64,000 nt of DNA from Acidobacteriota bacterium (GCA_965217775.1 CBDCJH010000002.1:2560001-2624000), one strand, 5' to 3'; shown: positions 1 through 62,653, counted from the first letter of the stretch. The notes: generated by a model from the letters alone, not told the origin. Numbers and translations are program-made.

Positions 1-3000
1 GGTCCGGCCATTGGTCAGTCCGGTGACGGTATAGGCCAGGTCCGCGGAGCCGATGGAGGTCCACTCCCCGGCCCGGTCGATCCGGATCTGGTAGCCGGTG
101 AGGGCGGAGCGCCCGTCGCTCGCAGGCACATCCCAGGTCAGCGTCACTTCACCGTCCCCGGCCTCTGCCTGCAGGTTCAGCGGTGCCGTGGGCGCCGTCG
201 CAGCCGGCGGAGGAGGCGGAGGAGGCGGCGGAGGTGGTGGTGGCGGAGGCGGTGGCGGCGGCGGAGGGGGAGGCGGCGGTGGAGGAGGAGGGGGAGGCGG
301 CGGCGGGGCCGAGACTTCGTTGTCCTGGACCGTCACCCGGGCGTTCTGGGTCGAAGTCGGGCCCAGCCGGTACTCGGCTCCCGGCCGCAGCCGGGCGGTG
401 ACCCGGCTCGCGGATTCGGCGACGTCGTCATTGTCGGTCAACACTTCCAACGTCGCCGTCTCCTGTCCGGTCCGGAACTCCACCTCCTCCGGCGGTTCGT
501 ACCCGCCCGAGGTCTCGATCATCGATCTCGTCTCCGTGACCTCCAGGTTCACCGTCAGCGGGGCCTCCGTCGGGGGCCCCCGCGTCAGCGTGAACTCCAC
601 GGTCTCGCCTTCCGTCACCGTCTCCGACCCCTCCTTGGCCCCGATGGTGACCAGGGGCGGCTCGGCTGGTTCATTGGTCAACGTCTCGACCCCGTTCCCC
701 ACCTCGTCCTGGATCGGATTGAATCCCGGCGTATAGCTCACCATCACGGTTTCGCCGGCCGTCACTGGAGAGTTCAGCCTCAAGATGACGCTGTTTCCGC
801 TCACCCGAACCTGGACCACCGTTCGATCATCCCCGGCCACCGTCACCGCGAAATCGAACCGCGATGGTGTCGAGCCCTCATCCAGCGCCTCGTCGTAGGT
901 CAGCGCCACCCGCAAGCCATGCACCGTCACGCCCTCCAGTCCCGGCACGCTCGCATCCACCTTGTGGCCCGCCTGCGCCTCCACCGCCTCGTAACTCCGT
1001 GCCGCCGGGTTGTCCGCCAGATCCAGGATCTTTCCTCCATTGAGCGCGATGCTCCCGCGCGGGACGCTCACTCCGTCCTCGTCCTCGTCCCCTTTCTCCA
1101 CCGTGTAGACGAACACCACGGCCGGCCGGTCCGACCCTAAACTGGCGCTGGCCCGCTTCCGCCGGGTCCCTACCAGCAGGTCCAGCGTCGGCGTTCCCCG
1201 CACGGTGTCCACCGTCACAGGCTCGTCGTACCTCACCGTCACCGAGATCATGTCGTCGACCGCGTAGGTCGCGTCCGTCCCCGGGTCCGAGCTGATCTCG
1301 ATCCCTTCGATCGACGGCGCCGTCGTGTCCGGTGTCCGGTTGTCCACGAACTGGTCCCTGAAGGCTTCGGCGTCGTTGCCCACCCGGTCCTGGATCGGAT
1401 TCGATCGGGGTTCATAGGTCACCCGGATCCCCGTCTCTCCGTGTTCCGCCGCCGGGTTCACCGTGAGACGAACCTCACTCCCGCTCACCCGAAATCGGGT
1501 CACCGTGCGCGTCTCGTTGCCTCCCTCCACGGTGAAGTCACTCGTCGCCGGTCGTGAGGACGTATTCAGGGGTTCGTTGTAGGTCAGCGTCAGCGTCGCG
1601 CCGTTGACCACCGCCGGATCGGTGAGTGCCAGCAACGGGGCGACCGCGTCCACCTTGTGGCTCGAACTGGCCGCCACGGCCTCATGGTCCAGCACGGCGT
1701 TATTGCCGGCGCCGTCCTGAATCGTCCCTCCGGCTCGCGACAGCCGGTTCGCCTCGAGGCTCACTCCGTCCTCGTCGTTGTCACCAGTGACCACCCGGTA
1801 GGCGAATTTCACCGCCCGGTTCGAGACGCTCCGGTACTCCGCCGTTCGGCTTCGGCCGCCCACGTCCAGGGTCACTTCCGGCGTTCCGGTGATCACCACC
1901 GTCTCCTCGAACGTCACCGTCACCTCGATGGTCTCGTCCACGCCGTAGGTCCGGTCCGGCCCTGCGATCGAGGTGATCGCCACGTTGCTCACCGTTGGTC
2001 CCTTCGTATCTCCCGTCTCGTTCGTGACGATCTTGTTGCTCAACTGATCCGCATCGTTCCCTGCGGTGTCCTGGATCGGATTCGACCTGGGCTCGTAGTT
2101 CACCCGGAGGCGGCTCTCTCCATCCGCGACGGCCGAGCTCAGGGTCAGGAACACCGCGTTTCCGCTGACCCGGACGCCGGTGACCGTCCGGGTTTCACTC
2201 CCGCCTGTCACGGTGAAGTCGTCCGTCGCCGGCACCGAAGAGGAATCCAAAGGCTCGCCGTAGGCCAGCGTCAGCGTCGTCCCGTTCACGACCGCTCCGT
2301 CGGTCGTCGCCAAAGTGGGCTTGACCCCATCCACCTGGTGCCGGGAATCGGCCGCTACCGGCGCGTGGCTCAGCACGGCGTTGTTCCGGGCGCCGTCCCG
2401 GATCGTGCCGCCGGACAGGCGATTCGCATCGATGCTCACCCCATAGGCGGCACTGTCGCCCGAGACCGCCTGGTATTCGAACCTCACGGCCGCTCCCGTG
2501 AGGTCCTGGTAGTTGGCCGTCCGGCTCCGGCCGCCCAGGTTCAGCGTCAACCGCGGCGTCCCCGTCACCACCACCGTCTCGCTGAACGTCACCGTCACTT
2601 CGATGGTTTCGCCGGCCGCGTAGGTCCGGTCCGATCCTGCGTTCGAGGTGATCCTCACCGTCTCCACGGTCGGCCCCGTCGTGTCTCCCGTGTGGTTGGT
2701 GACCGGTTGGTCGTTCAGCTCATCCGCGGCGTTGCCCACCGGGTCCTCGATCGGATTCCCCCCCGGCTGGTAGCTCAACCGGAGGCCGCTCTCTGTGTCC
2801 TGCACGGTCGGACTCAGAGTCAGCAAGACCGCGCTTCCGCTCACCTGCACCCGGGTGACCGTCCGGGCCTCACTCCCCCCGGTCACGGTGAAGGCGCTCG
2901 CCGCCGGTCTTGAGGAGGAGTTCAGCGGTTCGCTGTAGGCCAGCGTCAGCATCGTCCCGTTCACGACCGCTCCGTCGCTGGTCGCCAGAGTGGGCTTGAC

Positions 3001-17238: not shown

Positions 17239-17272
17239 CTTCCGGGGGTCGGGGACAGGTGAGGATCGCGGC

Positions 17273-17349
17273 GTAGGGGCACCCCTTGTGGGTGCCCGCT
17301 GTCGCCCCTACGAGCCCGGGGAGGGCGACCACACAAGGGTCGCCCCTAC
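17273..17349. repeat. GTAG-type REP cluster (inverted doublet plus partial copy) in G1 leader
   Basis: GTAGGGGCACCCCTTGTGGGTGCCC at 17273 (+) and GGGCGACCACACAAGGGTCGCCCCTAC at 17323-17349 (GTAG on -). Confidence 0.8.
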
Positions 17350-17389
17350 GGGTGTGCGAGCGTCCGCTGCTCCATCCTCTATCCGTCCA

Positions 17390-17499: not shown

Positions 17500-17560
17500 C
17501 CTCAGCGGGGGCAACCGAGGGATTCAGGGAGGGAATCGTCTTCCGACGACTCTCGGCGGA

Positions 17561-43656: not shown

Positions 43657-43730
43657 CCGGCAGGACCTTCCCCTTTTTTTCTGTGAGTTCGGGAGAACAG
43701 GGGAAGCAGGTTTGAACGAGGACCGCGATG

Positions 43731-45110: not shown

Positions 45111-45352
45111 TCCACCCTCCTCGGCCGCTTCGTCGCCGGTGACGGGAACGCCCTCGACTCCGGCAGTGAAACGAACCTGAGTCCGGCCAAGATGCCCCAG
45201 CAGTTCGCCATTCCCGCTCCCGTTCGAACCGGCCCCCCGGCCGCTCCGCCACGCCGAGCTCTCCAGGGCGATCCATCCGACCGCCGCCCGAGCGGTCGGC
45301 GCACAGGAATCCGGAGCCGAAAGGAGGGAGGCATGAAGGGACCAGATCCGGC

Positions 45353-45404
45353 CGCTGGAGACCCCGTGGCGGTCGCGGCCGCGACCGCCACGGGGTCTCC
45401 AGCG
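45353..45404. repeat. Perfect 52-bp loopless palindrome
   Basis: CGCTGGAGACCCCGTGGCGGTCGCGG|CCGCGACCGCCACGGGGTCTCCAGCG. Confidence 0.95.
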
Positions 45405-45813
45405 ATGTGTGCAATGTTCAGTGGCCATTGACATTCAGGTCCCCCATCACCTCCATGAGCACCGACGGCTGGCCCCACGGCAACCGGAAATCCGCTGCGG
45501 CCACACCGGGCGGGTGACCCCCAGGCGGCTTGATCCAGTGACCGACCGGCCGGCGGCGGACTCCCCACGGCCATGCGATCGCGGCCTGGCGCCTCCCCCG
45601 TCCCCGATCGTCTCGCACCAGCCCCCTCTCGTCGCTCCCCAACCGGGCGTCTCCTGCGGGTCCTCCAGACGCTCCGCAGCCCCATCCCGGCCCCTCGGCG
45701 AATCTCTCGAACCCCTCCTTGTGGCTCCCCCCCCGAACGGCCTCGCCAGGAACCGGAAGGGGACCGTTCTCGACGGCCACTTCGGTGCCCTCCTCCCGCG
45801 CCGCCCACACCCT

Positions 45814-46965: not shown

Positions 46966-47111
46966 CTTCACCTCCTACCCAAAGAAGGCTACTTCTCACC
47001 CTGATGTGTAAAGGATGTCCTGATACAAACTGTAAACGATGTCCTGATACCGTACACACAAGGGTCGCCCCTACTGTGCGAGCGTCCGCTACTCCACCCT
47101 CTATCCGTCCA

Positions 47112-47221
47112 CGTGTCGATTTTAAGGAGCAACCCGGACGAATTTGGGGCCTAATCGTGAACTCCGGGTGATATTTTTGTTGTTATAGTGATACTACAGT
47201 GAAATATTCCACCCGGACCGC
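47112..47221 (-). promoter_or_regulatory. Conserved promoter block, copy 3 (G3, now separated from it by the IS)
   Basis: -10 TAAAAT on - at 47119-47124; boxes GTGAAC 47157, GTGATAT 47168, GTGATAC 47188, GTGAAAT 47199. Confidence 0.75.
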
Positions 47222-47282
47222 CCTCACCGGCGGCAACCGAGGGATTCAGGGAGGGGATCGTCTTCCAACTACTCTCGGCAGG

Positions 47283-50200: not shown

Positions 50201-53200
50201 AGCTCACCCGGATGCCCGTCTCTCCGTGCTCCGACGCTGGATTCACCGTGAGACGAACCGTGCTCCCGCTCACCCGAACCCGGGTCACGGTGCGCGTCTC
50301 GTTGCCTCCCTCCACGGTGAAGTCGCTCGTCTCCGGTCGCGAGGACGTATTCAGGGGTTCGTTATAGGTCAGCGTCAGCGTCGCCCCGTTGACCACCGCC
50401 GGATCCGTATCGGCCAGCACCGGGGCGACCGCATCCACCTTGTGGCTCGAACTGGGCGCCACCGCATCATGGTCCAAGGTGGCGTCATTCTGTGCACCGT
50501 CTCGGATCGTCCCGCCGCTTCGCGACAGCCGGTTCGTCTCGAGGCTCACCCCGTCCTCGTCGTTGTCCCCAGTGACCACCCGGTAGGCGAACTTCACCGC
50601 CTGGTTCGAGACGCTCCGGTACTCCGCCGTTCGGCTTCGGCCTCCCACGTCCAGGGTCAGTTCCGGCGTTCCGGTGATCACCACCGTCTCGTCGAACGTC
50701 ACCGTCACCTCGATGGTCTCGTCCACGCCGTAGGTCCGATCCGACCCTGCACTCGAGGTGATCCGAACCGTCGACACGGCCGGTCCCGTCGTGTCTCCCG
50801 TCCGGTTCGTGACGCTCTTGCTGCTCAACCGGTCCGCGTCGTTGCCGGCGGTGTCCTGGATCGGATTCGATCCCGGCTGGTAGTTCACCCGGAGGCGGCT
50901 CTCTCCATCCGCGACGGCCGAACTCAGGGTCAGGAACACCGCGTTTCCGCTGACCCGGACGCCGGTGACCGTCCGGGTTTCACTCCCGCCTGTCACGGTG
51001 AAGTCGTCCGTCGACGGCACCGAAGAGGAATCCAACGGCTCGCCGTAGGCCAGCGTCAGCGTCCTCCCATTCACGACCGCTCCGTCGCTGGTCGCCAGTG
51101 TGGGCTTGACCCCGTCCACTTTGTGCTGGTTATCAGCCGCCACCGGCGCGTGGCTCAGCACGGCGTTGTTCCGGGCGCCGTCGCGGATGGTGCCGCCGGA
51201 CAGGCGGTTCGCCTCGAGGCTCACCCCGTACGGGGCCGTGTCTCCCGAGACCACCTGGTATTCGAACCTCACGGCGGCCCCCGTGACGTCCTTGTAGTTG
51301 GCCGTCCGGCTGCGTCCTCCCACGTTCAGCGTCAACCGCGGCGTCCCCGTCACCACCACCGTCTCGCTGAACGTCACCGTCACTTCGATGGTTTCGCCGG
51401 CCGCGTAGGTCCGGTCCGATCCTGCGTTCGAGGTGATCCTCACCGTCTCCACGGTCGGCCCCGTCGTGTCTCCCGTGTTGTTGGTGACCGGTTGGTTGTT
51501 CAGCTCGTCCGCGGCGTTGCCCACCACGTCCTCGATGGGGTTTCCCCCCGGCTGGTAGCTCAACCGGAGGCCGCTCTCTGTGTCCTGCACGGCCGGGTTC
51601 AACGTCAGCAAGACCGCGCTTCCGCTCACCTGCACCCGGGTGACCGTACGTGTCTCGCTGCCCCCGGTCACGGTGAAGGCGCTCGCCGCCGGTCTTGAGG
51701 AGGAGTTCAGCGGCTCGCTGTAGGCCAGCGTCAGCTTCGTCCCGTTCACCACCGCCCCGTCCGTCGTGGCCAGCACTGGGAGGATCCCGTCCACCTGGTG
51801 CCGCGCATCGGCCGCCACCGCCGCGTGGTCCAAGGTGGCGTCATTCTGCGCTCCGTCGCGGATCGTCCCCGCACCGCGCGACAGGCTGTCCGCATCGATG
51901 CTCACTCCGTCCCCGTCATTGTCACCCGGGACCACCCGGTAGGCGAACTTCACTGCCTGGTTCTTGACACTTCGGAAGTTCGCCGTTCGACTCCGACCGC
52001 CTAGGTTCAGGGTCAATTGCGGTGTCCCCGTCACCACCGCCGTCTCGTCGAACGTCACCGTCACTTCGATGATCTCGTCCACGCCGTAGGTCCGGTCCGA
52101 CCCTGCACTCGAGGTGATCCGAACCGTCAATACGGCCGGTCCCGTCGTGTCTCCCGTCCGGTTCGTGACGCTCTTGCTGCTCAACCGGTCCGCGTCGTTG
52201 CCGGCCGTGTCCTGAATCGGATCCGACCCGGGCTCGTAGCTCACCCGAAGGCCGCGCTCACCGTCCGTTACGGCCGAGCTCAGCGTCAGGAACACCGCGC
52301 TTCCGCTCACCCGGACGCCGCTGACCGTCCGGGTCTCACTCCCTCCCGTCACGGTGAAGTCGTCCGTCGCCGGCACCGAAGAGGAATCCAACGGCTCGCC
52401 GTAGGCCAGCGTCAGCGTCGTGCCGCTGGCCACCGCTCCGTCGGACGTCGCCAGCGTGGGCTTGATCCCATCCACCTGGTGCCGGGAATCGGCCGCCACC
52501 GGCGCGTGGTTCCGCACGGCGTTGTTCCGGGCGCCGTCCCGGATCGTCCCTCCCGACAGGCGGTTCGCATCGATGCTCACCCCGTAAGCAGCACTGTCCC
52601 CGGAAACCACCTGGTATTCGAACCTCACGGCGGCCCCCGTGACGTCCTTGTAGTTGGCCGTCCGGCTGCGGCCTCCCAGGTTCAACGTCAACCGCGGCGT
52701 CCCCGTCACCACCACCGTCGCGCTGAACGTCACCGTCACTTCGATGGTCTCGCCGGCCGCGTAGGTCTGATCCGATCCTGCGTTCGAGGTGATCCTCACC
52801 GTCTCCACTGTCGGTCCCGTCATGTCTCCCGTGCGGTTCGTGACCGTTCGGTTGTTCAGCTCGTCCGCGGCGTTGCCCACCACGTCCTCGATGGGGTTCC
52901 CGCCCGGCTGGTAGTTCAACCGGAGGCCGCTCTCTGTGTCTGTTACGGCCGGGTTCAACGTCAGCAGGACCGCGTTTCCGCTCACCTGGACCCGGGTGAC
53001 CGTTCGGGTCTCACTGCCCCCGGTCACAGTGAAGGCGCTCGTCGCCGGCCGAGGGGACGACCTCAGCGGCTCGCTGTAGGCCAGCGTCAGAGTCGTTCCG
53101 TTCGCCACCGCCCCGTCGGTCGTGGCCAGCGCCGGCGGCACCCCGTCCACCTGGTGCCGCGCATCGGCCGCCACCGCCGCGTGGTCGAGCTGCGCGTCAT

Positions 53201-56200
53201 TCCGGGCGCCGTCGCGGATCGTCCCTCCACCGCGCGACAGGCTGTCGGCATCGATACTCACGCCGTCCCGGTCGCGGTCGCCCCGGGAGACCCTGTACTC
53301 GAACTTGACGGCCGCCCCCGTGACACTCAGGTAGTCGGCCGTTCGATTCTGCCCGCCCACGTTCAGCGTCAACCGTGGGGTTCCCGTCACCACCACCGTC
53401 TCGTTGAACGTCACAGTCACCTCGATGGGATCTTCCACCGCGTAGGTCCGATCCGATCCCGCATTCGAGGTGATCCGCACTGTCTCCACCGCCGGCCCCG
53501 TCGTGTCTCCCGTGACGTTGGTGACGGACCGGTTGCTCAACCGATCCGCGTCGTTTCCGGCCGTGTCCTGGATCGGAGTCGCTCCCGTCCCCGTCGGCAC
53601 CGTGTAGCTCACCCGCAGGCCCGTCTCCCCGTGCTCCACCGCCGGATTCAGGGTCAGCTCCACCACGCTCCCGCTCACCCGGACTCCGGTGACCGTCCGC
53701 GTCTCACTCCCTCCGGTCACGGTGAAGGCGTCGTTCCCCGGGACCGAGGAGGAATCCAGCGGCTCGCTGTAGGCCAGAGTGAGCATCGACCCGTTCGCGA
53801 CGGCACCGCCGGTGCTTGCCAGTGCGGGCTTGATGCCGTCCACCTTCTGCCCGGTGTCGGCCGCCACGGCCGAGTGGGTCAGGACGGCATTGTTCCCTGC
53901 GGTGTCCTGGATCCTCCCGGTGGCTTGCGACAGACTGTCCGCCTCGATGCTCACCCCGTCCGTGTCGCTGTCGTTGACGGCCACCGTGTAGGCAAAGACC
54001 ACATCCGCCCCCGTGACACTCTCGAAGCTCGCCGATCGATCCCGCTCCCCCACCTTCAGCGCCACCCGCGGGGACCCGGACACCGTGACGGTCTCGCTGA
54101 AGGTCACCGTCACCTCGATCTCATCGCCGATGCCGTAGACGTCCCGGCCGTCCGGAGGATCCGAGGTGATTTCGATCCCTTCGATCCTCGGCGCCTCGGT
54201 GTCCTCCCCCTCGTCCTCGACGATCGACACCGTTACATTCGGCCCCGTCAGCACGGTTTCCGCACCGGCGTTCCACACTTCATGAGTCAAGGTCACCAAC
54301 GGATCCTTGTCAGCATCGTCGTCCCGGTCCGCCGACACCTGGAAACTCTTCGGTTGACTCCAGTTGCCTCCGTCACAATTCCCGTCGCCGCTGCTGACCG
54401 GATGAGCGTATCGGTCCAAGGTTACGTCCGTACCATCCGCATGACTCACTTGGACCCACACGTCGTCACCGCACTCCACACCGTAGAGCTCGGCAGGATT
54501 CTCATTGAAAACCACGGAGTAAACCGCGGTCGTCCCCTCGCGAATCTCCAGCGCGTCCGGCGCTGCGATCAACCTGATGGACGCACGGGGGATGACCCGC
54601 GGCGCGGGAACTTCCGAAAGCGTCGTGCCGTCAGCGGTGCAGATGCCGCCCGAGGCGCAGGATCGGCCGGAGACCAGGTTGAAGGTGATGGGGCCGTCCC
54701 CGCCGGGGGTCAGAGTGAAGAGGTAGGCATTCGCCGCTTCTCCAGCCGAGACCAGGGCGCTCACAGAGTCGAGCGTTGCGCCGGTGAGACTGACCGAGGC
54801 CGTGGCGGCCGTGAAGTCCACGACCGGCCGGCTGAAGGCAACCACTACCTTCGGCTTATCGAACGTCCCGGTGTGGCCGGCGGAGTTCCAGGTGCTCTCG
54901 GCAATCTCCGCCGTCAGCGGGCCGGGCGTGTCCGTGAGCGCGTCGGCGGGGACGGACGTCGCCATCAGGTAGGGCCGCTCTTCGGTATTCTCTTCCGTGA
55001 ACCTGATGAAGAACTTCTCCTGACCCGTGGCTGGATCGACCTGCGTGACCGTCTCCTCCAGGGGTGGCTGGTCTGGCAGGTTTCGGCCCCAACTGATCAG
55101 CCAGTCGCCGTTGTCCATGGGCAGGACCTGCCCGCTGGAATGGCCGTACGCTGCTTTGTTTCCATGCAGGGAATGATCGCGGACGAAGACCGCCTCGCCG
55201 GCGTCGTGGTCCAGCGCGTACTCCACCGCACGGCTGTACACGCCGTCCGTCCGCACCGACTCGCGGGTCCAGGGATCGATCAGGCACACAGCTCCGTTGT
55301 CGTAGAGCAGGAGATGGCCGTTCGGCAGGATCGTCGCGGAGTGCTGGCCGCAGAATTCCCCCTCGGGATCCTTGACCGGGATGAGCGGCGCCGGGCCGAT
55401 ATCGCGTGACGCCCACTCCTCATCACTCAGGTTGGTGCGTCCCACTCGCCACGCCACGGCTCCGGAGGTGACGTCAATGCCGAGCACCTTTGAGCACCCC
55501 CGGAATGATCCGACAATTTGATTGCCATACTTCCGGATGGAATTGACATGGGCATACCCGGGAAACCCTGATCGTGCGAAGCGGTGCTGGACGCAATCCT
55601 CGAGCGGCATGTCGCCCCAGGAGTCCCAGGTGAAAAGCGCCTCCCTATTGTCACGAGTAATGATCTGAATAGCCGAATCGATCATGGTATGGAGTTCATA
55701 CGGTTGCCCGTCAGCATCGGTGAAGGTCAGATGGCTGAGGTTTCTCCCCCTCCGCTCATACGCCATCAGCATGTAGTCGCCGTTCGGCAGAATGGCGAAG
55801 TCATGTTGGTCTGTGCCCGACAGCGGGAAGACCACGCTGATCCGACTGTCGATCAATTCCAGGTGCTGATTCAGGACGTCGAACCTGTTGTCCTGCGTGG
55901 GGTACGCGTAACGATAGACGTCATCCGGATCGATCCGAAAGAACCATGCGCGCTCACGGGCATCGGAGTGGAGTCCGCGGAATCTCGGGACGCCGTTATT
56001 GTCCATCATCACCAGAAATCCGGCGTGACGGAACAAGAGCAGGCCCTCGAACACCCCCTCGGCACCAGGATACCGGCCCGCCTCGATATGGTAGAACTTG
56101 GCATTGAGGCAGTGGACGTAGTAGACGGTGTGGGCGCCGTTGCGGTCGGTCACGCTGATCGGCACATCGCTCGTTATGTTCACCGGTACATTGACCGTGG

Positions 56201-59200
56201 AGTTGTCGCCCAGGACCTGCCTCCCGTCGACCGCCACGCGGGCGCCCGACGGCGCACTCAGGGTCACTCGCATCGTGTCGCCGCTATCGCAGCCGATGGC
56301 GTAGTGCAAGGTCTCCGCTTCGAACGCCGGATTCATGGCGCGACCGGGGTTGGCTGTGGCGGCGTCGGTGGACACCTGAAGCGCAGTCAGCAGCGGTCCC
56401 GTCACCACCTCGGACGCCACCTTCTGAACCCTGTGCCCAGAACCGTGCTCGTCGTCGTACGTCGCCGTCACGCGCAGGAACGCGTTCGTGTCGGCAGCCG
56501 TCGGCCTGTAGCTGGCTGCCGTGGCCCCGTCGATGACCACCCAGGCGCCCGGCCCCGTCGAGCGCTCCCACTCCCACGTGACCGTCCCGGCCGTGACCCC
56601 ATCGGGATCGGTCACAGCGGCGGCCAGCGCCGTTCCCAGCCGGGGAACGGTCGAGGACAGGGTCAGCGCCCCCACCTCGTCCCGGTCGGTGACGGTGACG
56701 GTCACGTCCTTGGTGAGGTTGGAGATCCCGTCCGACGCGGCCACGGTGACCGAGTACATGTTGCCCGTGCCCACGTCGGACGGCGACTCGTAGTCGGGCA
56801 GGGAGAGGAATCTGAGAGCACCGCCGTCGATGGAGAAACCGCCGCTGTCGGCTCCCGACAACGACCAGATAACGTCCGCATTGTCTTCTGGGGAAGACGC
56901 CATGTAGGTGGCCACCCGAGTGGCCCCGTTCTCGGCGTAATCCGTGCTCGACGGTCCCGTCAACTCCGTCGACAGTTCAAGGACGTTCTGCAATGTCACG
57001 CGGATGTCCGCCGTGACCGGGTTGTCGCCGTCGCTCACCTGCACGGTGATTTCATAGGTCCGGTCGCCGTCGGCGTCGTCCGGGTTTTCATAGTCGGGGG
57101 CCGCCGCGAAGGCCAAGACACCAGCACTGCTCAGTGTGAACTGGGCTGCATCCGTCCCGCCCGCCGTCGGAATCGACCACATCAAGGGGTCGGCATCCGC
57201 ATCCGTGGCGGTCAAGGTCGCCACCGCTGTCGTCTCCTCATCGACCGTGAAGGTGGTCGCGCTAGTGATCTCGGGGGCGGCTTCCTGGAGGGTAATGGTC
57301 TGTCCGGTTCCAGCGACCGACCACGGGCTGTCGCCCTCATCGTTGGTGGCCCGCACCTGGACGTGATAGGAGCTGCCCGCCTCCAGGCCCGTGATCGTCG
57401 CGCTGGTGGCAGTCTGATCCTGCGGCCCGTTGGTCCAGGCCCCGCTGTCGCCTTTCCGGTACTGCAGATCGTAGCTCTCGATGCCCGGCTTGCCGGCGTT
57501 GGCTGGCGCAATCCAGATCACGTCCAGGCTGTCGGTCGTACCCGCCTTCGCCGACACCGTCGGTGCACTTGGCGCCGGTGGCGGCTCGTCCGTGTCCATG
57601 ACGGTGATGGTCAAAATGGTGCTGTCGTTCAAACCCTGCGGGTCGGTGGCGGTGGCTGTTACCTCGTATGAACGCCTGGTCTCATAGTCAAATGCCACGT
57701 TGGCCCACATCGCTCCAACAGTGTCATCGGGGATGCTGAAGGACGCGGCGTCGGGGCCGCTCAGCGTGTACGTGAGCGTGTCGCCGTCCGAATCAAGCGC
57801 CAGCACCTTGGCGACGAAGGTTGAGATGTCGTTGTTCTCATCCACCTTCCGGGTTTCGGTATCGGTCAGGAACGCCGGTGCTCGGCTAGCGCTGACCCTG
57901 AGTATCTTGTCCCGACCCCTGCCATTCGAGGTGGTCACGTACAGGGCACCGTCAGGACCGAGCATGGGGGTCCGCAGCCGGCCGTAGGCCCCATCGACTG
58001 CGGGTACGGCGACCTGACTCACGAAGGCGCCGCCCGTGGTGAACTCGAAGACACGCAGCAACAGGGTCTTGAGCGCGGCCACGGCCAGTCGCCCGTCCCA
58101 CTCGCCCCAGTCCTCTCCCTCCAGGAAGATGCCGCCGCTGGTGGCCAACGTGTGATTCCCCGACGACCACTTGGCCTCCTTGGCATCGGGAAACTTGGCC
58201 AGGTCGGTCATGGGAGCGCTATGGTTGTAGCCGGGAACCCAACTGTCGTCGAGCCCGTCGACTGGATCCCAGCCGTAGTTGCCGCCGGTGGCCAGCAGGT
58301 TGATCTCATCGTCCCGGCCCGTGCCGTGCTCCACCGACCACATCTGGTTCGTGCCGGGTCGCAGCGCCAAGCCCTGGGGGTGCCGGTGGCCATAGGAGTA
58401 GACCTGTGATGCGAATGGATTCCCCGGTGCTCTGGCCCCCGTCGACGCCTCGACCCGCAGGATCTTCCCGCCGCGCGAGTCCAGATTCTGCGGCAGCGTC
58501 GGGCGATACGCGTCGCCGGTCGCGATCCACAGATAACCCTCTGGTCCGAAGCGCAGCCGACATCCGGCGTGATAGGCGTTGCCGACGCGGATGCCTCTGA
58601 CGAGAGGGTCGGCAACGCGGACAGCTTCGGTGTAGGTGTCGTTGATGCTCCAGGCGATCACTTGACCCTCGGGCCCGGTGTGGGCCAGACAGGTGTAGAA
58701 CCGCCGGTTGGATGCGAAGTCGGGGTCGATAACGATGCCCGTCAACCCCGTATCATTCACGAAGTACCCGTCGTCGAGATCGGCCGAGACGGTCTGGACT
58801 GTGCCGTCGGTGAGCCGACTGAGCAGCCTGCCCCTCCCGGGGCTCCGCCGGCCCCCCCGCTCGGTGAACAGCATCGTCCCGTCGGGCGCGAAGGCGATGT
58901 CCCAGGGATGCGACAGGCCGGAGACGATTTCGACGACTGTGATTTTCGGCGCGGGTGCCTGCTCACCGACCACATGATCCCAGACGACTTTCAGAGTCTT
59001 GCCTGGCCCGAATCCGTCTCTGTAGGTCGCCGTAGCCCGCAGGTACAGTCCCCTGTCAGCGTCGGTCGGCGCATAGTTGGGACCCGGAGGCTGTTCCGAT
59101 CTCTCCCCTTCGCTGGTTATCTGCTCCCCGAAGTCGTTGATGTCGTCCCAGCCGCTCTTGTCCATGGAGCTGGCCCATTTCCAGGTCAGTTTGCCGACAC

Positions 59201-59900
59201 CGTCAGGGTCGCTCACCCTTACCTGGAGCACGGTTCCAACTCGGGGCTGGGCCGGAAAGAAGGTGATGGTGCCCTCTTCATCCACGTTGGTGACGGTGAC
59301 GCTCAGGTCCAGGGGAGAGCTGGTGCTTGTGCCGTCGCTGACCTGCACGGTGACTTCATAGGTCCGGTCGCCGTCGGCGTCGTCCGGGTTTTCATAGTCC
59401 TTGGCGGTGCTGAAAGCCAAGTCACCGGCGGAACCGAGCGTGAACTGGTCCGCGTCCGCGCCTCCCATGCCCGCCTCTGGAATCGTCCAGACCAGTTGGT
59501 CGGTTGCCGTGTCCTCGTCCGACGCGGTGAGGGTCGTCACCGCCGTCGTTCCCTCGGCGACGGTGAAGGGCCCGCCACTGGTAATCTCGGGTGCCGTCTG
59601 CGCCTGCGCGTCCGTGCTGGAGGGGAGCAAGAGCACGAGCGCAAACAGACAGACTGCACTGCGGCTCGGGATACAGCTCTTGAGGGCCGCGACGCCGAAT
59701 CGCAGAAACGCCGGCAAGGCGGCGCGAAGGACACGGAGGGTCCGGCGCGTGCACGACAAGAAAGCGACGACTGGATCAAACTGCGGCATTGGAATCGGCT
59801 CGACCCGCAGAGAAATCGCCGCCAGCGCCCCAAACGCTCCCCGCCACCCACCACCGCGGGCCCACGGCGCGATTCCTGTCAGGCGGATCCTCTTCATCAC
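47283..59900 (-). CDS. Giant modular protein G4, 4205 aa: leader, cadherins, PQQ sugar dehydrogenase, FN3, arylsulfotransferase-like domain, Ig-like, 7 stalk units, Calx-beta-like, Pro36, FN3, duplicated C-terminal domain
   Basis: ORF track; cadherin DYExPxDADGDxxYEVTV; GSDH motifs (HAGCRLRFGP, YGHRHPQG, DDEINLL); ASST motifs HDFAILPNG, HVNSI, SFR, GQHSA, LYDNG, SRAVEY. Confidence 0.95.
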   Translation of the reverse strand: MMKRIRLTGIAPWARGGGWRGAFGALAAISLRVEPIPMPQFDPVVAFLSCTRRTLRVLRAALPAFLRFGVAALKSCIPSRSAVCLFALVLLLPSSTDAQAQTAPEITSGGPFTVAEGTTAVTTLTASDEDTATDQLVWTIPEAGMGGADADQFTLGSAGDLAFSTAKDYENPDDADGDRTYEVTVQVSDGTSTSSPLDLSVTVTNVDEEGTITFFPAQPRVGTVLQVRVSDPDGVGKLTWKWASSMDKSGWDDINDFGEQITSEGERSEQPPGPNYAPTDADRGLYLRATATYRDGFGPGKTLKVVWDHVVGEQAPAPKITVVEIVSGLSHPWDIAFAPDGTMLFTERGGRRSPGRGRLLSRLTDGTVQTVSADLDDGYFVNDTGLTGIVIDPDFASNRRFYTCLAHTGPEGQVIAWSINDTYTEAVRVADPLVRGIRVGNAYHAGCRLRFGPEGYLWIATGDAYRPTLPQNLDSRGGKILRVEASTGARAPGNPFASQVYSYGHRHPQGLALRPGTNQMWSVEHGTGRDDEINLLATGGNYGWDPVDGLDDSWVPGYNHSAPMTDLAKFPDAKEAKWSSGNHTLATSGGIFLEGEDWGEWDGRLAVAALKTLLLRVFEFTTGGAFVSQVAVPAVDGAYGRLRTPMLGPDGALYVTTSNGRGRDKILRVSASRAPAFLTDTETRKVDENNDISTFVAKVLALDSDGDTLTYTLSGPDAASFSIPDDTVGAMWANVAFDYETRRSYEVTATATDPQGLNDSTILTITVMDTDEPPPAPSAPTVSAKAGTTDSLDVIWIAPANAGKPGIESYDLQYRKGDSGAWTNGPQDQTATSATITGLEAGSSYHVQVRATNDEGDSPWSVAGTGQTITLQEAAPEITSATTFTVDEETTAVATLTATDADADPLMWSIPTAGGTDAAQFTLSSAGVLAFAAAPDYENPDDADGDRTYEITVQVSDGDNPVTADIRVTLQNVLELSTELTGPSSTDYAENGATRVATYMASSPEDNADVIWSLSGADSGGFSIDGGALRFLSLPDYESPSDVGTGNMYSVTVAASDGISNLTKDVTVTVTDRDEVGALTLSSTVPRLGTALAAAVTDPDGVTAGTVTWEWERSTGPGAWVVIDGATAASYRPTAADTNAFLRVTATYDDEHGSGHRVQKVASEVVTGPLLTALQVSTDAATANPGRAMNPAFEAETLHYAIGCDSGDTMRVTLSAPSGARVAVDGRQVLGDNSTVNVPVNITSDVPISVTDRNGAHTVYYVHCLNAKFYHIEAGRYPGAEGVFEGLLLFRHAGFLVMMDNNGVPRFRGLHSDARERAWFFRIDPDDVYRYAYPTQDNRFDVLNQHLELIDSRISVVFPLSGTDQHDFAILPNGDYMLMAYERRGRNLSHLTFTDADGQPYELHTMIDSAIQIITRDNREALFTWDSWGDMPLEDCVQHRFARSGFPGYAHVNSIRKYGNQIVGSFRGCSKVLGIDVTSGAVAWRVGRTNLSDEEWASRDIGPAPLIPVKDPEGEFCGQHSATILPNGHLLLYDNGAVCLIDPWTRESVRTDGVYSRAVEYALDHDAGEAVFVRDHSLHGNKAAYGHSSGQVLPMDNGDWLISWGRNLPDQPPLEETVTQVDPATGQEKFFIRFTEENTEERPYLMATSVPADALTDTPGPLTAEIAESTWNSAGHTGTFDKPKVVVAFSRPVVDFTAATASVSLTGATLDSVSALVSAGEAANAYLFTLTPGGDGPITFNLVSGRSCASGGICTADGTTLSEVPAPRVIPRASIRLIAAPDALEIREGTTAVYSVVFNENPAELYGVECGDDVWVQVSHADGTDVTLDRYAHPVSSGDGNCDGGNWSQPKSFQVSADRDDDADKDPLVTLTHEVWNAGAETVLTGPNVTVSIVEDEGEDTEAPRIEGIEITSDPPDGRDVYGIGDEIEVTVTFSETVTVSGSPRVALKVGERDRSASFESVTGADVVFAYTVAVNDSDTDGVSIEADSLSQATGRIQDTAGNNAVLTHSAVAADTGQKVDGIKPALASTGGAVANGSMLTLAYSEPLDSSSVPGNDAFTVTGGSETRTVTGVRVSGSVVELTLNPAVEHGETGLRVSYTVPTGTGATPIQDTAGNDADRLSNRSVTNVTGDTTGPAVETVRITSNAGSDRTYAVEDPIEVTVTFNETVVVTGTPRLTLNVGGQNRTADYLSVTGAAVKFEYRVSRGDRDRDGVSIDADSLSRGGGTIRDGARNDAQLDHAAVAADARHQVDGVPPALATTDGAVANGTTLTLAYSEPLRSSPRPATSAFTVTGGSETRTVTRVQVSGNAVLLTLNPAVTDTESGLRLNYQPGGNPIEDVVGNAADELNNRTVTNRTGDMTGPTVETVRITSNAGSDQTYAAGETIEVTVTFSATVVVTGTPRLTLNLGGRSRTANYKDVTGAAVRFEYQVVSGDSAAYGVSIDANRLSGGTIRDGARNNAVRNHAPVAADSRHQVDGIKPTLATSDGAVASGTTLTLAYGEPLDSSSVPATDDFTVTGGSETRTVSGVRVSGSAVFLTLSSAVTDGERGLRVSYEPGSDPIQDTAGNDADRLSSKSVTNRTGDTTGPAVLTVRITSSAGSDRTYGVDEIIEVTVTFDETAVVTGTPQLTLNLGGRSRTANFRSVKNQAVKFAYRVVPGDNDGDGVSIDADSLSRGAGTIRDGAQNDATLDHAAVAADARHQVDGILPVLATTDGAVVNGTKLTLAYSEPLNSSSRPAASAFTVTGGSETRTVTRVQVSGSAVLLTLNPAVQDTESGLRLSYQPGGNPIEDVVGNAADELNNQPVTNNTGDTTGPTVETVRITSNAGSDRTYAAGETIEVTVTFSETVVVTGTPRLTLNVGGRSRTANYKDVTGAAVRFEYQVVSGDTAPYGVSLEANRLSGGTIRDGARNNAVLSHAPVAADNQHKVDGVKPTLATSDGAVVNGRTLTLAYGEPLDSSSVPSTDDFTVTGGSETRTVTGVRVSGNAVFLTLSSAVADGESRLRVNYQPGSNPIQDTAGNDADRLSSKSVTNRTGDTTGPAVSTVRITSSAGSDRTYGVDETIEVTVTFDETVVITGTPELTLDVGGRSRTAEYRSVSNQAVKFAYRVVTGDNDEDGVSLETNRLSRSGGTIRDGAQNDATLDHDAVAPSSSHKVDAVAPVLADTDPAVVNGATLTLTYNEPLNTSSRPETSDFTVEGGNETRTVTRVRVSGSTVRLTVNPASEHGETGIRVSYEPRSNPIQDRVGNDAEAFTDEFVDNQTPDTTAPSIEGIEISSDPGTDATYAVDDMISVTVRYDEPVTVDTIRGTPTLELLVGTRRKRASASVGPDRPVVVFVYTVEKGDEDEDGVSVPRGSITLNGGKILDLADNPAARSYEAVEAQAGHKVDASVPELESVTVHDSRVALNYDEPLDESLVPLRSDFAVTVEGNDRPVTQVQVRGNSVILTLASAVATGDTVRVDYTPGFNPIQDEVGNGTEMLTNEEADPPLVTIEAREGSETVTEGDRVEFTLTRGPPTEASLTVNVEVTERGSVIDTSGGDPPDEVVFPARQETAPLSVRTDDDDVAESAGRVTARLRPGAKYRLGPTSTQSARVTVQDNEVSAPPPPPPPPPPPPPPPPPPPPPPPPPPPPPPPPPPPPAATVPTAPLNLQAEAGDGEVTLTWKVPESDGRSALTGYEVRIDRAGDWISIGSTDLSYTVTGLTNGRTYVFEVRAVNSVGPSPHSSPVEATPMAEGVVLEFAHFGNGYTGNDVLITSDLVLVNVAESEIRPVVYFFDGEGDLFEAESVVDVGEDLEIREDGGLSPRTEIASLGELTISTHGRGEVVTGSVRVVSDGPIGGVVRFDIPGIGVAGVGASEPTADALFPARRQAGGIRTAAAIHNLGPEAVKVQCRLLKNGRVLEEGEIKLSANGQDAQFIEELFTETDTTDFVGSVRCTVPAGESFTGVAVELDAGNRIFTTLPVVPIGPEATEDQDTTLNFAHFANGTSGDGTLITSDLVLVNVAASTARPAIYFYDQGGELLEPESMVEVEDHLLVREDGGLTLRTALARLGELTISTHGRGEVVTGSVRVVANGPIGGVLRFDIPGVGVAGVGASQATVDALFPARRQPSGIRTAAAIRNLAAQRATVRCRLMSGGEALDEVDIRLDSHGQHARFIEEVFTRTDTRDFVGSVRCTALGEGLFTGVAVELDTDNRIFTTLPVVPIQR
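48987..49094 (-). repeat. Poly-proline tract of G4 (36 Pro)
   Basis: 36 consecutive CCN codons. Confidence 0.97.
49450..54200 (-). repeat. G4 stalk: 7 tandem Ig-like + SwmB-type units
   Basis: Seven unit starts in the translation. Confidence 0.9.
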
Positions 59901-59937
59901 CTTCCAGCGGGGTCGGGGGCAGGTGAGGATCGCGACG

Positions 59938-60056
59938 TCGGGGCACCCCTTGTGGGCGCCCGCTGTTGTCCGTCACTGCTCGGTCCGGGAAGGGCAACCA
60001 CAAGGGGTGCCCCTACGAGCCCGGGGAGGGCGACCACACACAAGGGTCGCCCCTAC
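59938..60056. repeat. GTAG-type REP cluster (3 copies) in G4 leader
   Basis: GGGGCACCCCTTGTGGGCGCCC, GGGCAACCACAAGGGGTGCCCCTAC, GGGCGACCACACACAAGGGTCGCCCCTAC. Confidence 0.8.
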
Positions 60057-60093
60057 TGTGCGAGCGTCCGCTACTCCCTCCTCTATCCGTCCA

Positions 60094-60203
60094 CGTGTCA
60101 ATTTTAAGGAGGAACCCGGACGAAATTGGCCCAAATAAATGAAAGCCGGGTGATATTTTGATCCGTATAGTGATACTCTAGTGAAATATTCCACCCGGAC
60201 CGC
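60094..60203. promoter_or_regulatory. Conserved promoter block, copy 4; probably bidirectional (G4 and the regulator)
   Basis: -10 TAAAAT on - at 60101-60106; boxes ATGAAAG 60139, GTGATAT 60150, GTGATAC 60170, GTGAAAT 60181; TATAGT on + at 60166-60171. Confidence 0.75.
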
Positions 60204-60310
60204 TCTCGCTGCCGTCTGCAGAGCGCGGAGCGTAGCGCCCCCGGATCCTCCCAGCGATGCTGGGGGACGGGGCACCGGGTCTTGCTCCGGGATTTGACGG
60301 GGGAGGGAAA

Positions 60311-62653
60311 ATGAAGAGTAGCGACGAATTGAGGCGAGAGAACGACGCGCTGCGAGAGCGCATCTCCCGGCTGAGCGCCGCCATCCTGCGCATCAGCGCG
60401 ACCCTCGACGTCGGCGCCGTCCTGCGCGAGGTCGTGGACAGCGCCCGCGCGTTGACCCGCACCCGCTACGGCGTGATTGCGACCCTCGACGACGCGGGGC
60501 AGCCCCAGGAGTTCGTCTCGTCCGGCCTCACTGCGGAAGACCACGAACGGCTGATGAGCTGGTCCGGCGGGAGGGAGCTCTTCGAGTGCCTGCGGGGGCT
60601 TCGGGGAACGCTGAGACTGCGAGATCTGCCCGATTATTCCACCTTGCTCGACTATCTCCCGAACCTGATGGGGTCGAAGACCATCCAGGGAGCGCCCATG
60701 CACCATCGGGGCGTGCACGTCGGCAATTTCTTTCTCGGCGGGAAGGAGGGAGAGCCGGAGTTCACGAGCGCGGACGAAGAGACCCTGGTGCTGTTCGCAT
60801 CTCAGGCAGCGACGGCCATCGCCAACGCCCGCACGCACCGGGACGAGCAGCGGGCTCGGGCCGACCTGGAGGTCCTGGTCGAGACCTCGCCGGTGGGCGT
60901 GGTGCTCATGGAGGCCAAGACCGTCAAGCCGGTATCGTTCAATCGGGAGGCGATGCGAATCGTGGAAGGTCTGTGCACACCGGGTCAATCCACGGAGGAG
61001 TTGCTGGAGATCGTGACCTGCCGGTTCGGCGACGGGCAGGAATTCTCCGCGAGAGAGTTTCCGCTGGCGCAAGTGCTGGGCAACGCTACCCCGGTACGCG
61101 CCGAGGAGATCGTCCTCCGGGTCCCCGACGGCCGGAGTGTCACGACGCTGTTCAATGCCTCGCCGGTCCGTTCCGAGGACGGCACGGTCGAGTCCGTGAT
61201 CGTCACCCTTCAGGACTTGGCTCCACTGAAGGAGCTGGAGCGGTTGCGGGCCGAGTTCCTGGGTATGGTGAGCCACGAACTCCGGGTTCCGCTGACCTCC
61301 ATCAAGGGCTCGGCCGCCACCGCGCTGCGGGCGTCGCCGACCCCGGACCCGGCCGTGGTGCAGCAGTTCCTCCGCATCATCGATGAGCAGGCCGATCACA
61401 TGCACAGCCTGATCGACGATCTGCTGGATGCGGGTCGCATCGAGGCGGGCACGCTGGCGGTCGGCCCCGAGCCGACGGAGGTGGCCCGCTTGGTGGAACA
61501 GGCCAGGAACATGTTCCTGAGTGGAGAAGGCCGGCACACCGTCCAGATCGACCTGCCGCCGGATCTGCCCCGGGTGATGGCCGACCGCGGCCGCATCGTC
61601 CAGGTGTTGACCAACCTCCTGTCCAACGCGGCCCGGCACTCGCCCGAGGCGTCCCCCATCCGGGTTGCCGCGGAGCGGAAGGGCGTTCACGTGGCGATCT
61701 CGGTCTCCGACAAAGGCCAAGGGGTACCGCTGGATCAACTGCCGCACCTTTTCCGGAAGTACGCGCGTGGCGGCGGCGATCGCGGGATCAGGGGATCCGG
61801 TCTGGGTCTGTCCATCTGCAAGGGTCTGGTGGAGGCCCACGGGGGGCGCATCCGCGCCGAGAGTGGCGGGACCGGCCTGGGCACGCGGTTCACCTTCACG
61901 ATTCCGGTGGCGGAGGACGCCGCGACCGGCTTCGCCCGGAGCTCTTCCCGCCCGCCTCGGGAAGAGCGGGAACGAACCCGCATCCTGGTGGTGGACGACG
62001 ACCCGCAGACGCTCCGCTACGTGCGGGACGCGCTGGCGGACGCCGGCTACTCCCCCCTGGTGACGGGCGATCCTCAGGAGGTGTCCGGCCTGATCAAGTC
62101 GAAGCAGCCCCGGCTGGTGCTCCTGGACCTGATACTGCCCGGGGTCGACGGCATCGAGTTGATGGAGCGGGTCCCCGCGCTGGCCGATCTGCCCGTCATC
62201 TTCATCTCCGGCTACGGACGGGACGAGACGATCGCCCGGGCCCTGGAGGCCGGGGCCTCCGATTACATCGTCAAGCCCTTCTCACCGACGGAGCTGACGG
62301 CGAGAGTCCGGGCGGCCCTGCGCCGGCGCGACGAGCCGCCCGAACCCTTCCGCTTGAGAGAATTGGCCATCCACTACGAGGAACGCCGGGTGACCGTCGC
62401 CGGCCGTCCGGTGCAGCTTACGACCACCGAATACAAGCTGCTGCGCGTGCTCTCGGTCAACGCCGGACGGGTCATGACGTACGGTTCCCTGCTGCGCCAA
62501 GTGTGGGGCCGGGAAGAATCCGGCGACATCCGACCGGTGCGCTCCTTCGTGAAGATGCTCCGCCGCAAGCTGGGCGATGACGCCGCCAACCCGGCCTATA
62601 TCTTCAACGAGCGCCGGGTCGGCTACCGCATGGCCAGACCCGGCGGCCGGTGA
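60311..62653 (+). CDS. Cytoplasmic hybrid sensor kinase/DNA-binding response regulator (GAF-PAS-HisKA-HATPase-REC-OmpR/PhoB-type winged helix), ~780 aa
   Basis: GGAGG RBS before ATG 60311; MVSHELRVPLTSIKG H-box, NLLSNA, DKGQG, GSGLGL; ILVVDDD, LLDLILPGVDG, YIVKPF; LTTTEYKLL...LLRQVWG...LRRKLGDD..NPAYIFNERRVGYR; no obvious TM helix. Confidence 0.95.
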   Translation: MKSSDELRRENDALRERISRLSAAILRISATLDVGAVLREVVDSARALTRTRYGVIATLDDAGQPQEFVSSGLTAEDHERLMSWSGGRELFECLRGLRGTLRLRDLPDYSTLLDYLPNLMGSKTIQGAPMHHRGVHVGNFFLGGKEGEPEFTSADEETLVLFASQAATAIANARTHRDEQRARADLEVLVETSPVGVVLMEAKTVKPVSFNREAMRIVEGLCTPGQSTEELLEIVTCRFGDGQEFSAREFPLAQVLGNATPVRAEEIVLRVPDGRSVTTLFNASPVRSEDGTVESVIVTLQDLAPLKELERLRAEFLGMVSHELRVPLTSIKGSAATALRASPTPDPAVVQQFLRIIDEQADHMHSLIDDLLDAGRIEAGTLAVGPEPTEVARLVEQARNMFLSGEGRHTVQIDLPPDLPRVMADRGRIVQVLTNLLSNAARHSPEASPIRVAAERKGVHVAISVSDKGQGVPLDQLPHLFRKYARGGGDRGIRGSGLGLSICKGLVEAHGGRIRAESGGTGLGTRFTFTIPVAEDAATGFARSSSRPPREERERTRILVVDDDPQTLRYVRDALADAGYSPLVTGDPQEVSGLIKSKQPRLVLLDLILPGVDGIELMERVPALADLPVIFISGYGRDETIARALEAGASDYIVKPFSPTELTARVRAALRRRDEPPEPFRLRELAIHYEERRVTVAGRPVQLTTTEYKLLRVLSVNAGRVMTYGSLLRQVWGREESGDIRPVRSFVKMLRRKLGDDAANPAYIFNERRVGYRMARPGGR

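Follow-up and report, generated by a model that had tools for sequence, protein, structure and literature searches.

Giant modular proteins with a common C-terminal chassis, and a soluble hybrid kinase family, in an Acidobacteriota genome

The giant genes and their modular products

We analysed a 64,000-nt stretch (the window) of the assembly GCA_965217775.1 (uncultured Acidobacteriota bacterium), which carries a tandem array of giant genes and, divergent from the last of them, a gene encoding a hybrid kinase. The window corresponds to C2:2560001-2624000 (contig CBDCJH010000002.1); plain coordinates below are window positions, and those prefixed C2 are contig positions. The genome is a metagenome-derived assembly of 6.43 Mb in two contigs (97.9% complete, 7.5% estimated contamination), and the window sits in the 6.29-Mb contig. 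The principal genes are as follows.

1..17238, minus strand: G1; the N-terminal 5746 codons are in the window and the gene runs off the window start
17561..28831, minus strand: G2, 3756 aa
29785..43656, minus strand: G3, probable start ATG at 43656 (the TTG open reading frame (ORF) at 29785..44130 has 4781 aa)
47283..59900, minus strand: G4, 4205 aa counted from GTG
60257..62653, plus strand: hybrid kinase, 798 aa, divergent from G4

G1 in full is an open frame of 6268 codons, its end lying 1,497 nt ahead of the first window position. For G3, the ATG at 43656 is the most likely start; the TTG ORF extends into an inserted insertion sequence (IS). The original prediction, a note made from the window sequence, described four tandem giants. 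The four ORFs were confirmed; however, the array comprises six genes over 92 kb, two of them outside the window, before position 1 (open frames of 5315, 4912, 6268, 3773, 4786 and 4229 codons, the third being complete G1). The unit of interest is also wider than the array. A search of all 15,857 stop-to-stop ORFs with a length of 150 aa or more for the C-terminal terminal domain (TD) of these proteins recovered 29 carriers, and the giants in the genome number 13. Four other loci hold the seven giants outside the array, with a tandem set of three at 24-57 kb, single giants at 714 kb and 1,236 kb, and a pair at 2,076-2,095 kb. Together the 13 giants account for ~53,000 codons, ~2.5% of the genome, devoted to one protein design.

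Domains were called by Pfam scans of whole proteins and of tiles. The giants end in a constant chassis of ~2,100 aa with the order SWM/Ig repeats, Calx-like domain, polyproline, fn3 and two TD units of ~230 aa; it contains about 7-9 double-Ig SWM units, and the polyproline is ~34 residues long. SWM_repeat (PF13753) matched in 7-9 stretches per protein (E 1e-74 to 4e-106; 233-348 bits, cut-off 27), and the NCBIfam model TIGR02059 (swm_rep_I) scored 158-209 bits (cut-off 40.1). A run of 24-38 prolines was present in all 13 giants, ~570-600 residues from the protein end. The C-terminal ~2,080-2,200 aa were 75-89% identical in most giant pairs, as measured on single alignments that reached both C-termini over 1,840-2,200+ residues; some pairs gave no such high-scoring segment pair. 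The Pfam scans, the proline run and an alignment of the TD thus bore out the C-terminal order and duplicated terminal domain first noticed in the window. The ratio of nonsynonymous to synonymous substitution (dN/dS) in the chassis was ~0.25; the giant genes are therefore under purifying selection and are not decaying. Neither NCBIfam sorting-signal models nor Pfam autotransporter models matched G2-G4.

Parts of this design are familiar. SwmB-type cyanobacterial giants, also very large and exported, contain the same SWM repeat family (PF13753/TIGR02059), but in the present proteins the repeats form a constant spacer that joins the polyproline-fn3-TD end to interchangeable payloads, and a role in motility is not implied. 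Sortase-anchored MSCRAMMs and RTX adhesins (LapA, MpIBP) resemble the giants in having a long rod of Ig-like repeats that keeps ligand-binding or enzymatic modules at a distance from the cell, and G1 itself has LapA-domain and Calx-beta-like repeats. The giants differ from both in having an N-terminal Sec signal rather than a type I secretion route, no LPXTG and no retention module, and in comprising numerous paralogs whose payloads are shuffled on a single homogenised chassis.

N-terminal to the chassis, the four giants of the window carry different payloads, in the following orders.

G1: signal peptide, two S8-like domains, 3 GLUG modules, Calx/LapA-like repeats, Spondin_N, cadherin, GSDH, cadherin, chassis
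G2: signal peptide, leucine-rich repeats (LRR), M12B-like module, Calx-beta, 1 GLUG module, chassis
G3: signal peptide, two S8-like domains, 2 GLUG modules, chassis
G4: cadherin, GSDH, cadherin, fn3, cadherin, ASST-like propeller, chassis; 0 GLUG modules

Three payloads were confined to single members of the four, namely Spond_N in G1 (E 3e-38), LRR plus Reprolysin in G2 (Reprolysin_4, 44.9 bits, cut-off 22) and Arylsulfotrans in G4, and cadherin was present in both G1 and G4. By profile match, the GSDH domains (PF07995) of G1 (E 1e-69, 235 bits, profile positions 1-328 of 332) and G4 (E 1e-60, 206-218 bits) are a near-full-length fit to the glucose/sorbosone dehydrogenase propeller hidden Markov model (HMM). 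The HMM scan agreed with the payload list originally drawn up for the four giants, with the S8 match being weak: Peptidase_S8 (PF00082) scored 40.8 bits in G1 and 35.8 bits in G3 (cut-off 21.8) and covered profile positions 112-288 only, the C-terminal half with the Ser motif. The GTSxAxP Ser motif and the DGTG Asp motif were present in the S8-like domains, and the catalytic His could not be placed. In the first ~450 residues of the S8-type giants (G1, G3 and four others) there were two DGTG domains each and at most one GTSxAxP; the S8-type giants B2 and D had no GTSxAxP motif. The first S8-like domain looks degenerate from these motifs.

Payload blocks were 38-79% identical between giants or were unique, in contrast to the higher identity of the chassis. 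Identity was 51-55% between the payloads of G1 and G3, 65-79% between those of G1 and another giant, A1, and 48% between residues 3300-3900 of G1 and residues 100-700 of G4; residues 2800-3300 of G1 and 800-1900 of G4 had no partner among the giants. By the Nei-Gojobori method, synonymous divergence (dS) in the chassis was 0.22-0.27 among G1-G4, whereas dS in the payload was 0.80 for G1-G3 and 0.68 for the GSDH block of G1-G4. The order was reversed for G1 and the giant A2 (payload 0.17, chassis 0.29). The genealogies of payload and chassis therefore differ, and recombination, either cassette exchange or gene conversion, is required to explain this; the combinatorial payload exchange suspected from the window was upheld by this discordance. 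Such discordant histories make the giants a tractable natural case of cassette exchange in giant genes. A possible trace of one exchange was seen at the N-terminus of G4 (59600-59900), which holds a remnant of a signal peptide of the G1/G3 type, MKRIRLTGIAPWARGGGWRG..., followed ~85 codons into the open frame by a second, better signal-peptide-like segment, ...LFALVLLLPSSTDAQAQ. The two successive leaders suggest a payload swap that left the old leader behind.

Polymorphic toxins (Rhs, contact-dependent inhibition) likewise consist of paralogous giant genes with a constant part and recombining variable cassettes. In the giants, however, the polarity is opposite, the payloads are adhesion and enzyme modules rather than toxins, and there are no immunity genes. 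A constant C-terminus with a variable N-terminus is usual in C-terminally sorted or anchored proteins such as sortase substrates, cargo of the type IX secretion system (T9SS) and autotransporters. The polarity originally noted as the reverse of that in polymorphic toxins is the ordinary layout of such surface proteins.

The terminal domain and its distribution

The TD pair of G2 and its equivalents are located as follows.

17564..18979, minus strand: TD1+TD2 of G2 (equivalents: 29788-31203 in G3 and 47286-48698 in G4)

The pair (~470 residues) had no match in Pfam even at E<=1 and none in NCBIfam. An alignment of 19 TD pairs resolved two units, each ~230 residues long and containing two invariant Cys; the motifs FAHFANG, STHGRG, GVAGVGAS and FTTLPVVP were conserved, as were the final residues, FTTLPVVPV/I. 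An AlphaFold2 model of the pair built from this alignment was all-beta (pLDDT 90, pTM 0.87). Foldseek comparison of the model with the PDB gave generic multi-Ig matches only (TM ~0.1), and VIA-align exhaustive alignment was used instead; in all these comparisons the query was the predicted model and not a solved structure. The C-subdomain of the TD unit matched TM1070 of Thermotoga (1nc7_A) with Z 13.1 and rmsd 2.5, or Z 13.4 and rmsd 2.3 with a single-unit model (106/116 residues), and matched the transducer of Anabaena sensory rhodopsin (ASRT; 2ii7_A) with Z 9.9 and 9.8. All other structural matches of this subdomain had Z of 7.0 or less. In a protein language-model atlas, unnamed Acidobacteriota clusters ranked first, and the nearest named entries were DUF5719 and DUF5719+ASRT (score of the latter 0.94).

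On the model, each TD unit is predicted to be a beta-sandwich followed by a sandwich of the ASRAH type (TM1070/ASRT-like), and the TD represents an unnamed family. The ASRAH superfamily was defined by De Souza, Iyer & Aravind (2009; PMC2739507), and that paper argues for sugar binding and, for extracellular versions, for binding of cell-surface polysaccharide. The TD is accordingly modelled as probably sugar-binding. What the TD has in common with the ASRAH proteins is the predicted fold of the C-terminal half of each unit. It differs from them in being fused to a preceding beta-sandwich, tandemly duplicated and placed at the end of giants, and in having no Pfam ASRT match.

A search of the TD pair against 1.84 billion representative proteins retrieved 1,301, 893 and 341 clusters at E<=1e-3, 1e-10 and 1e-30, respectively. 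In most of the rows listed the match reached the protein end or nearly so (for example, 685-1155 of 1155 and 4192-4661 of 4667); there were exceptions, for instance 911-1369 of 2220. All named relatives carrying the TD were Acidobacteriota metagenome-assembled genomes. Within the order of the studied genome, the TD was present in 31/31 genomes, which span 18 genera and had 1-34 matches each. In an even sample of the phylum, it was present in 19/201 genomes, that is, in 16/16 of the order and 3/185 outside it. Both tallies include an unpublished genome, G016, with one match each. Among the 40 closest homolog clusters from elsewhere, 55 Pfam families were found at E<=1e-5, including fn3 in 16 clusters, LRR_8 in 10, Calx-beta in 6, SWM_repeat and cadherin in 5 each and astacin in 3; GSDH, Spond_N, NHL and CARDB each occurred in 2/40.

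Within the genome under study, the TD lay at the extreme C-terminus in 27 of the 29 carriers, and a signal-peptide-like N-terminus, often ending A-x-A-Q, was recognised heuristically in 24. TD-ended proteins other than those described above carried LRR plus Reprolysin (2), GLUG (3), PPDK_N (2), Cache (1), LRR alone (4) or fn3 (1). Genome searching with the terminal domain, which had been proposed together with the array, thus recovered varied payloads on the 29 ORFs and the domain itself throughout the order examined. From their sequences, the TD proteins are best regarded as an exported family, of which the giants would be a sub-family that gained a common long rod. No description of the TD family was found in literature searched at title and abstract level. 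The two proteins with PPDK_N are tandem 3,000-aa giants, 92% identical (L039 and L040; G000:C2:2076201-2094774). PPDK_N, the ATP-binding domain of pyruvate phosphate dikinase, is an odd domain for an extracellular protein.

Upstream repeats and the hybrid kinase family

The region upstream of the giants contains a block of two parts, a distal, giant-specific part of ~130-170 nt and a proximal palindromic repeat of ~130 nt that is REP-like. In the window, the block is represented as follows.

17239..17560, minus strand: upstream region of G1, full block; TCAC-type direct repeats at ~17375-17497, then a REP-like repeat at 17305-17332
29614..29727, minus strand: distal block of G2, ahead of a small ORF (ORF203) and 870 nt upstream of G2; four-repeat motif from 29705 down to 29659
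47054..47225, minus strand: distal block of G3, now 3.4 kb from the G3 start; four-repeat motif from 47203 down to 47157
59901..60256, minus strand: G4/kinase intergenic region, full block; four TCAC repeats from 60185 down to 60139, spaced 11/20/11 bp

The distal part has eight copies in the genome, all upstream of giants. Six are in the array, where they start 65-85 nt past the stop of the preceding gene, and two are outside it, before the 4389-codon giant at 48 kb (C2:48346) and before the 1,236-kb giant (C2:1235588). The proximal, REP-like part has ~35 genome copies of the GTAGGGGCGACCC...GGTCGCCCT type, with window sites at 17305-17332, 43718-43831 and 60010-60037. The original prediction of one promoter block for each giant therefore holds in part: a full block lies upstream of G1 and G4, but G2 has the distal part only, the block of G3 is split by an IS481-family element, and the proximal part is REP-like. 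A first-alignment impression that G2 lacked the block was ruled out by a pattern search and blastn, which found the distal part.

Eleven aligned copies, three of them congeneric, showed a conserved core, GGTGGAAYATTTCAC-N7-TCAC-N16-TCAC-N7-TCA(C/T), that is, four direct repeats spaced 11/20/11 bp, with CCAAA.TCGTCCGGGTTGCTCCTTA(A/C/T)AAT-GACAC downstream. In the G4/kinase intergenic region, the TCAC repeats are followed by a -10-like hexamer, TAAAAT, and then by the REP-like repeat. The strict four-repeat pattern had five genome hits, all upstream of giants, against 0, 0 and 0 in three shuffles. The two-repeat pattern had ten hits, seven of them upstream of giants, against 2, 0 and 1 in shuffles; one of the ten lies 74 nt upstream of a kinase paralog at C2:3711320. 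The block was retained in a congeneric genome, in which the four repeats were kept although the spacers had diverged. In the congeneric genome G006, the four repeats also persist between a kinase paralog and a 5617-codon giant, in an intergenic region that has otherwise diverged. Sites of this kind, helically phased direct repeats, are classical for OmpR/PhoB-family winged-helix domains, the type of output domain carried by the neighbouring kinase. The upstream block may have promoter activity.

The kinase has the Pfam domain order GAF-PAS-HisKA-HATPase_c-REC-Trans_reg_C. HisKA, HATPase_c, REC and the DNA-binding output were all above Pfam cut-offs in one chain, the H-box SHELR and the acidic (Asp) pocket of REC were present, and no membrane-spanning segment was found (maximum 19-residue hydropathy, KD19, 1.3). 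By sequence, it is a soluble one-polypeptide two-component protein with an OmpR/PhoB-type output. The hybrid two-component systems of Bacteroides (HTCS) have an AraC-type output and a periplasmic sensor, unlike the present kinase, which is soluble, with a GAF-PAS sensor and no transmembrane segment, and whose output is an OmpR/PhoB-type winged helix. Like the Bacteroides HTCS (PMC11253607 and PMC3404733) and ChiS of Vibrio, the present kinase unites sensor kinase, receiver and DNA-binding output in a single polypeptide and is encoded next to loci for exported proteins.

The genome has four full-length paralogs of the kinase (68-81% identity). Of 27 kinase paralogs in four congeneric genomes, 7 had a TD gene no more than 3 kb away. 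In 5,000 trials of random placement, the mean was 0.88, the maximum was 6 and 7 was never reached. The TD genes concerned differed, with frames of 5617, 3338, 2552, 1936 and 843 codons. These findings show that the hybrid kinase family is non-randomly close to TD genes. In G006, which is a single contig, a 91%-identical kinase ortholog stands beside a syntenic locus with two giants and the block. One giant of that locus is intact (6660 codons). The second (L056, G006:C1:5583600-5593700) is broken into at least three frames (2121, 1044 and 667 codons) and represents either a pseudogene or assembly indels.

Several components of the locus belong to kinds already known, namely SWM repeats, GLUG, LRR, histidine kinase-response regulator (HK-RR) fusions, IS481 and REP-like repeats. 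Three features were not described in Pfam, NCBIfam or the literature searched: the TD module, used throughout the order; a homogenised chassis whose payloads recombine; and the giant-specific phased-repeat block linked to a soluble one-polypeptide kinase family. The block and the soluble HK-RR fusion form a directly testable candidate regulator-operator pair.

Interpretation, alternatives and other features of the window

We propose that the giants are lineage-specific, Sec-exported modular proteins with a variable N-terminal payload on a constant chassis of ~2,100 aa. The TD pair would bind a glycan of the cell's own envelope and so tether the C-terminus, and the rod would hold the payload some tens of nm off the surface. 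Recombination at the border of payload and chassis would reshuffle the displayed modules. On a cytoplasmic signal, the soluble GAF-PAS hybrid kinase would activate giant genes, its OmpR-type domain, once phosphorylated, binding the phased repeats as at a pho box. For the joint reading, in which the TD pair tethers the protein to the cell's own envelope glycan, the payload sits at the far end of the rod and hybrid kinases switch giants on through the four-repeat operator, we estimate a probability of about 0.45, slightly short of even odds; surface display, C-terminal tethering and regulation are all inferred. Should the TD prove to be an envelope anchor or a sorting module, this would account for surface building in a whole order of largely uncultured Acidobacteriota, and also for their display of LRR, cadherin, fn3 and spondin-type modules, generally treated as eukaryote-like interaction domains. 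A wider reading is more tentative. It envisages an order-specific display system in which a tandem beta-sandwich/ASRAH domain would tether dozens of exported proteins to an envelope glycan, a homogenised rod of 2,100 aa would allow paralogs to exchange enzyme and eukaryote-like adhesion cassettes by recombination, and a soluble regulator family would switch individual members through a pho-box-like four-repeat operator. The array may thus be a sign of a mode of bacterial cell-surface construction that is so far undescribed.

A number of observations weigh against the tethered, kinase-switched display reading. The orientation of the tether is pure inference, and the TD could equally be the distal, ligand-binding end. 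The N-subdomain of the TD gave generic beta-sandwich matches only (Z ~6), and the Pfam ASRT profile (PF07100) had no match to the TD pair at E<=1; the link between TD and ASRAH is therefore by predicted fold only. In 2 of the 29 carriers (L049 and L050; G000:C2:3650006-3667323) the TD is internal, with trypsin-TD-TD followed by PKD or by 14 CARDB. As to the enzyme payloads, PDB subtilases aligned to the S8-like domains around the Ser motif only (E 2e-3). The metzincin motif of G2, at ~27900 (residues ~292-303 from the ATG, 309-320 in open-frame numbering), reads HQLGHLMGLAQD, that is, HQLGH...Q and not HExxH...H, with Glu replaced by Gln and the third His by Gln; the paralogs B1 and B3 retain the canonical HExxHxxGxxHD (HELGHIMGVRHD and HEVGHNMGLGHD). 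Because these Glu and His residues are lost, the protease-like module of G2 is probably inactive, and the M12B-like module is probably, judging from the motif, a pseudo-protease kept for binding. On the regulatory side, a sigma-70 and terminator consensus scan of 59850-60300 returned 0 sites, and the IS481 insertion separates G3 from the distal part of its block. In this genome, only one of the five kinases adjoins a TD gene; no kinase neighbours the four other giant loci, and no giant was adjacent to any of the other four kinase paralogs. The kinase is therefore not dedicated to the array as originally predicted, although the predicted architecture and a linkage to TD genes (7/27 against 0.88 expected) were confirmed. 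Among the congeneric genomes, 20 of the 27 kinase paralogs were not near a TD gene, and because the compared genomes are congeneric, the proximity statistic overstates independence.

Two alternatives concern the function of the TD. The giants might be released as matrix or foraging proteins, with the TD as a carbohydrate-binding module (CBM) targeting external glycans (host, prey or biofilm polymer) and the stalk as a spacer or matrix fibre. The predicted ASRAH/CBM-like fold, the lack of a recognised anchor or sorting signal in G2-G4, the two proteins with an internal TD, and protease, GSDH and ASST-like payloads that would suit extracellular processing all speak for release. However, a constant polyproline-bearing rod of 2,100 aa would be costly for a freely diffusing enzyme, the TD is at the extreme C-terminus in 27/29 proteins, and many payloads (LRR, cadherin, spondin, fn3) are of the adhesion type typical of surface proteins; we regard release as possible but unlikely. 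A role of the TD as a folded C-terminal secretion or sorting domain for an unidentified outer-membrane translocon, perhaps removed or attached to lipid or glycan after export, appears improbable. Such a role would account for an extreme C-terminal beta-sandwich common to dozens of otherwise unrelated exported proteins per genome, for the lineage restriction (31/31 in the order against 3/185 sampled elsewhere in the phylum) and for the conserved last residues, and it recalls T9SS cargo of Bacteroidota, in which dozens of exported proteins per genome with unrelated N-terminal enzyme or adhesin parts have one lineage-restricted beta-sandwich at the extreme C-terminus. The TD differs from T9SS cargo in consisting of tandem two-domain units of ~230 aa, in its ability to be internal, in its Acidobacteriota host, and in matching 0 NCBIfam families and no sorting-tail model; at ~460 aa the tandem units are far above the size of known sorting domains, and further domains follow the TD in 2/29 proteins. 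ORF lists around the five giant loci, with neighbours judged by listing and no HMM scan, revealed no evident common accessory or secretion gene. SprA (TIGR04189) was searched for without a match in the genome, but the 14 control genomes had no match either, so this absence carries no weight.

The other alternatives concern the locus itself. The position of the kinase could be incidental and the block merely part of a duplicated unit (3' flank plus the next 5' leader) with no regulatory tie. Co-duplication with the gene would be expected to place the block at a fixed distance, as observed (always 65-85 nt past the preceding stop), and fits with the many kinase paralogs distant from TD genes and with the lack of a called sigma-70 promoter. 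This explanation is rather doubtful in view of the blocks upstream of giants outside the array (C2:48346, C2:1235588), the four phased repeats kept while spacers diverged, also next to another kinase paralog and giant pair in G006, the half-site 74 nt upstream of the kinase paralog at C2:3711320, and the enriched adjacency. An assembly artefact, in the form of a collapsed or expanded repeat or a strain chimera, is very improbable. The assembly is metagenome-derived with some estimated contamination, and the chassis copies are ~80-89% identical. Logan contigs from public runs (four runs from 4 studies) covered all 30 bins, but at 150-850 nt they bridge no gene junction and so give the order of the array no independent support. 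On the other hand, the window lies within a 6.29-Mb contig of a two-contig genome, the paralogs are distinct enough to be resolved (dS 0.22-0.3), every ORF is intact over 3.7-6.3 kaa, a single-contig congeneric genome has the syntenic two-giant and kinase locus, and the unique payload of G2 was recovered at ~99% identity in contigs from 4 studies.

Two further elements and an Rfam result complete the window. An Rfam scan of the whole window at gathering thresholds gave 0 matches. The two elements are as follows.

28831..29442, minus strand: ORF203, a small exported ORF of 203 aa whose stop overlaps the ATG of G2 (TAATG)
43821..47072, no strand assigned: IS481-family element, 3,252 bp, with the transposase at 45814..46971 (minus strand)

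ORF203 had no match in Pfam or NCBIfam. Paralogs of it (69% and 63% identity) directly precede the two other LRR-M12B giants of the genome (C2:34030-34596 and C2:57035-57601), and it may be a separately encoded pro-domain or chaperone. The transposase of the IS481-family element matched NF033577 with 243.1 bits (cut-off 224). The element has six copies in the genome, the other five being 99.5-99.7% identical, and from this similarity it looks recently active. The ~1.7 kb of the element outside the transposase contains an internal 198-nt repeat with 86% identity.

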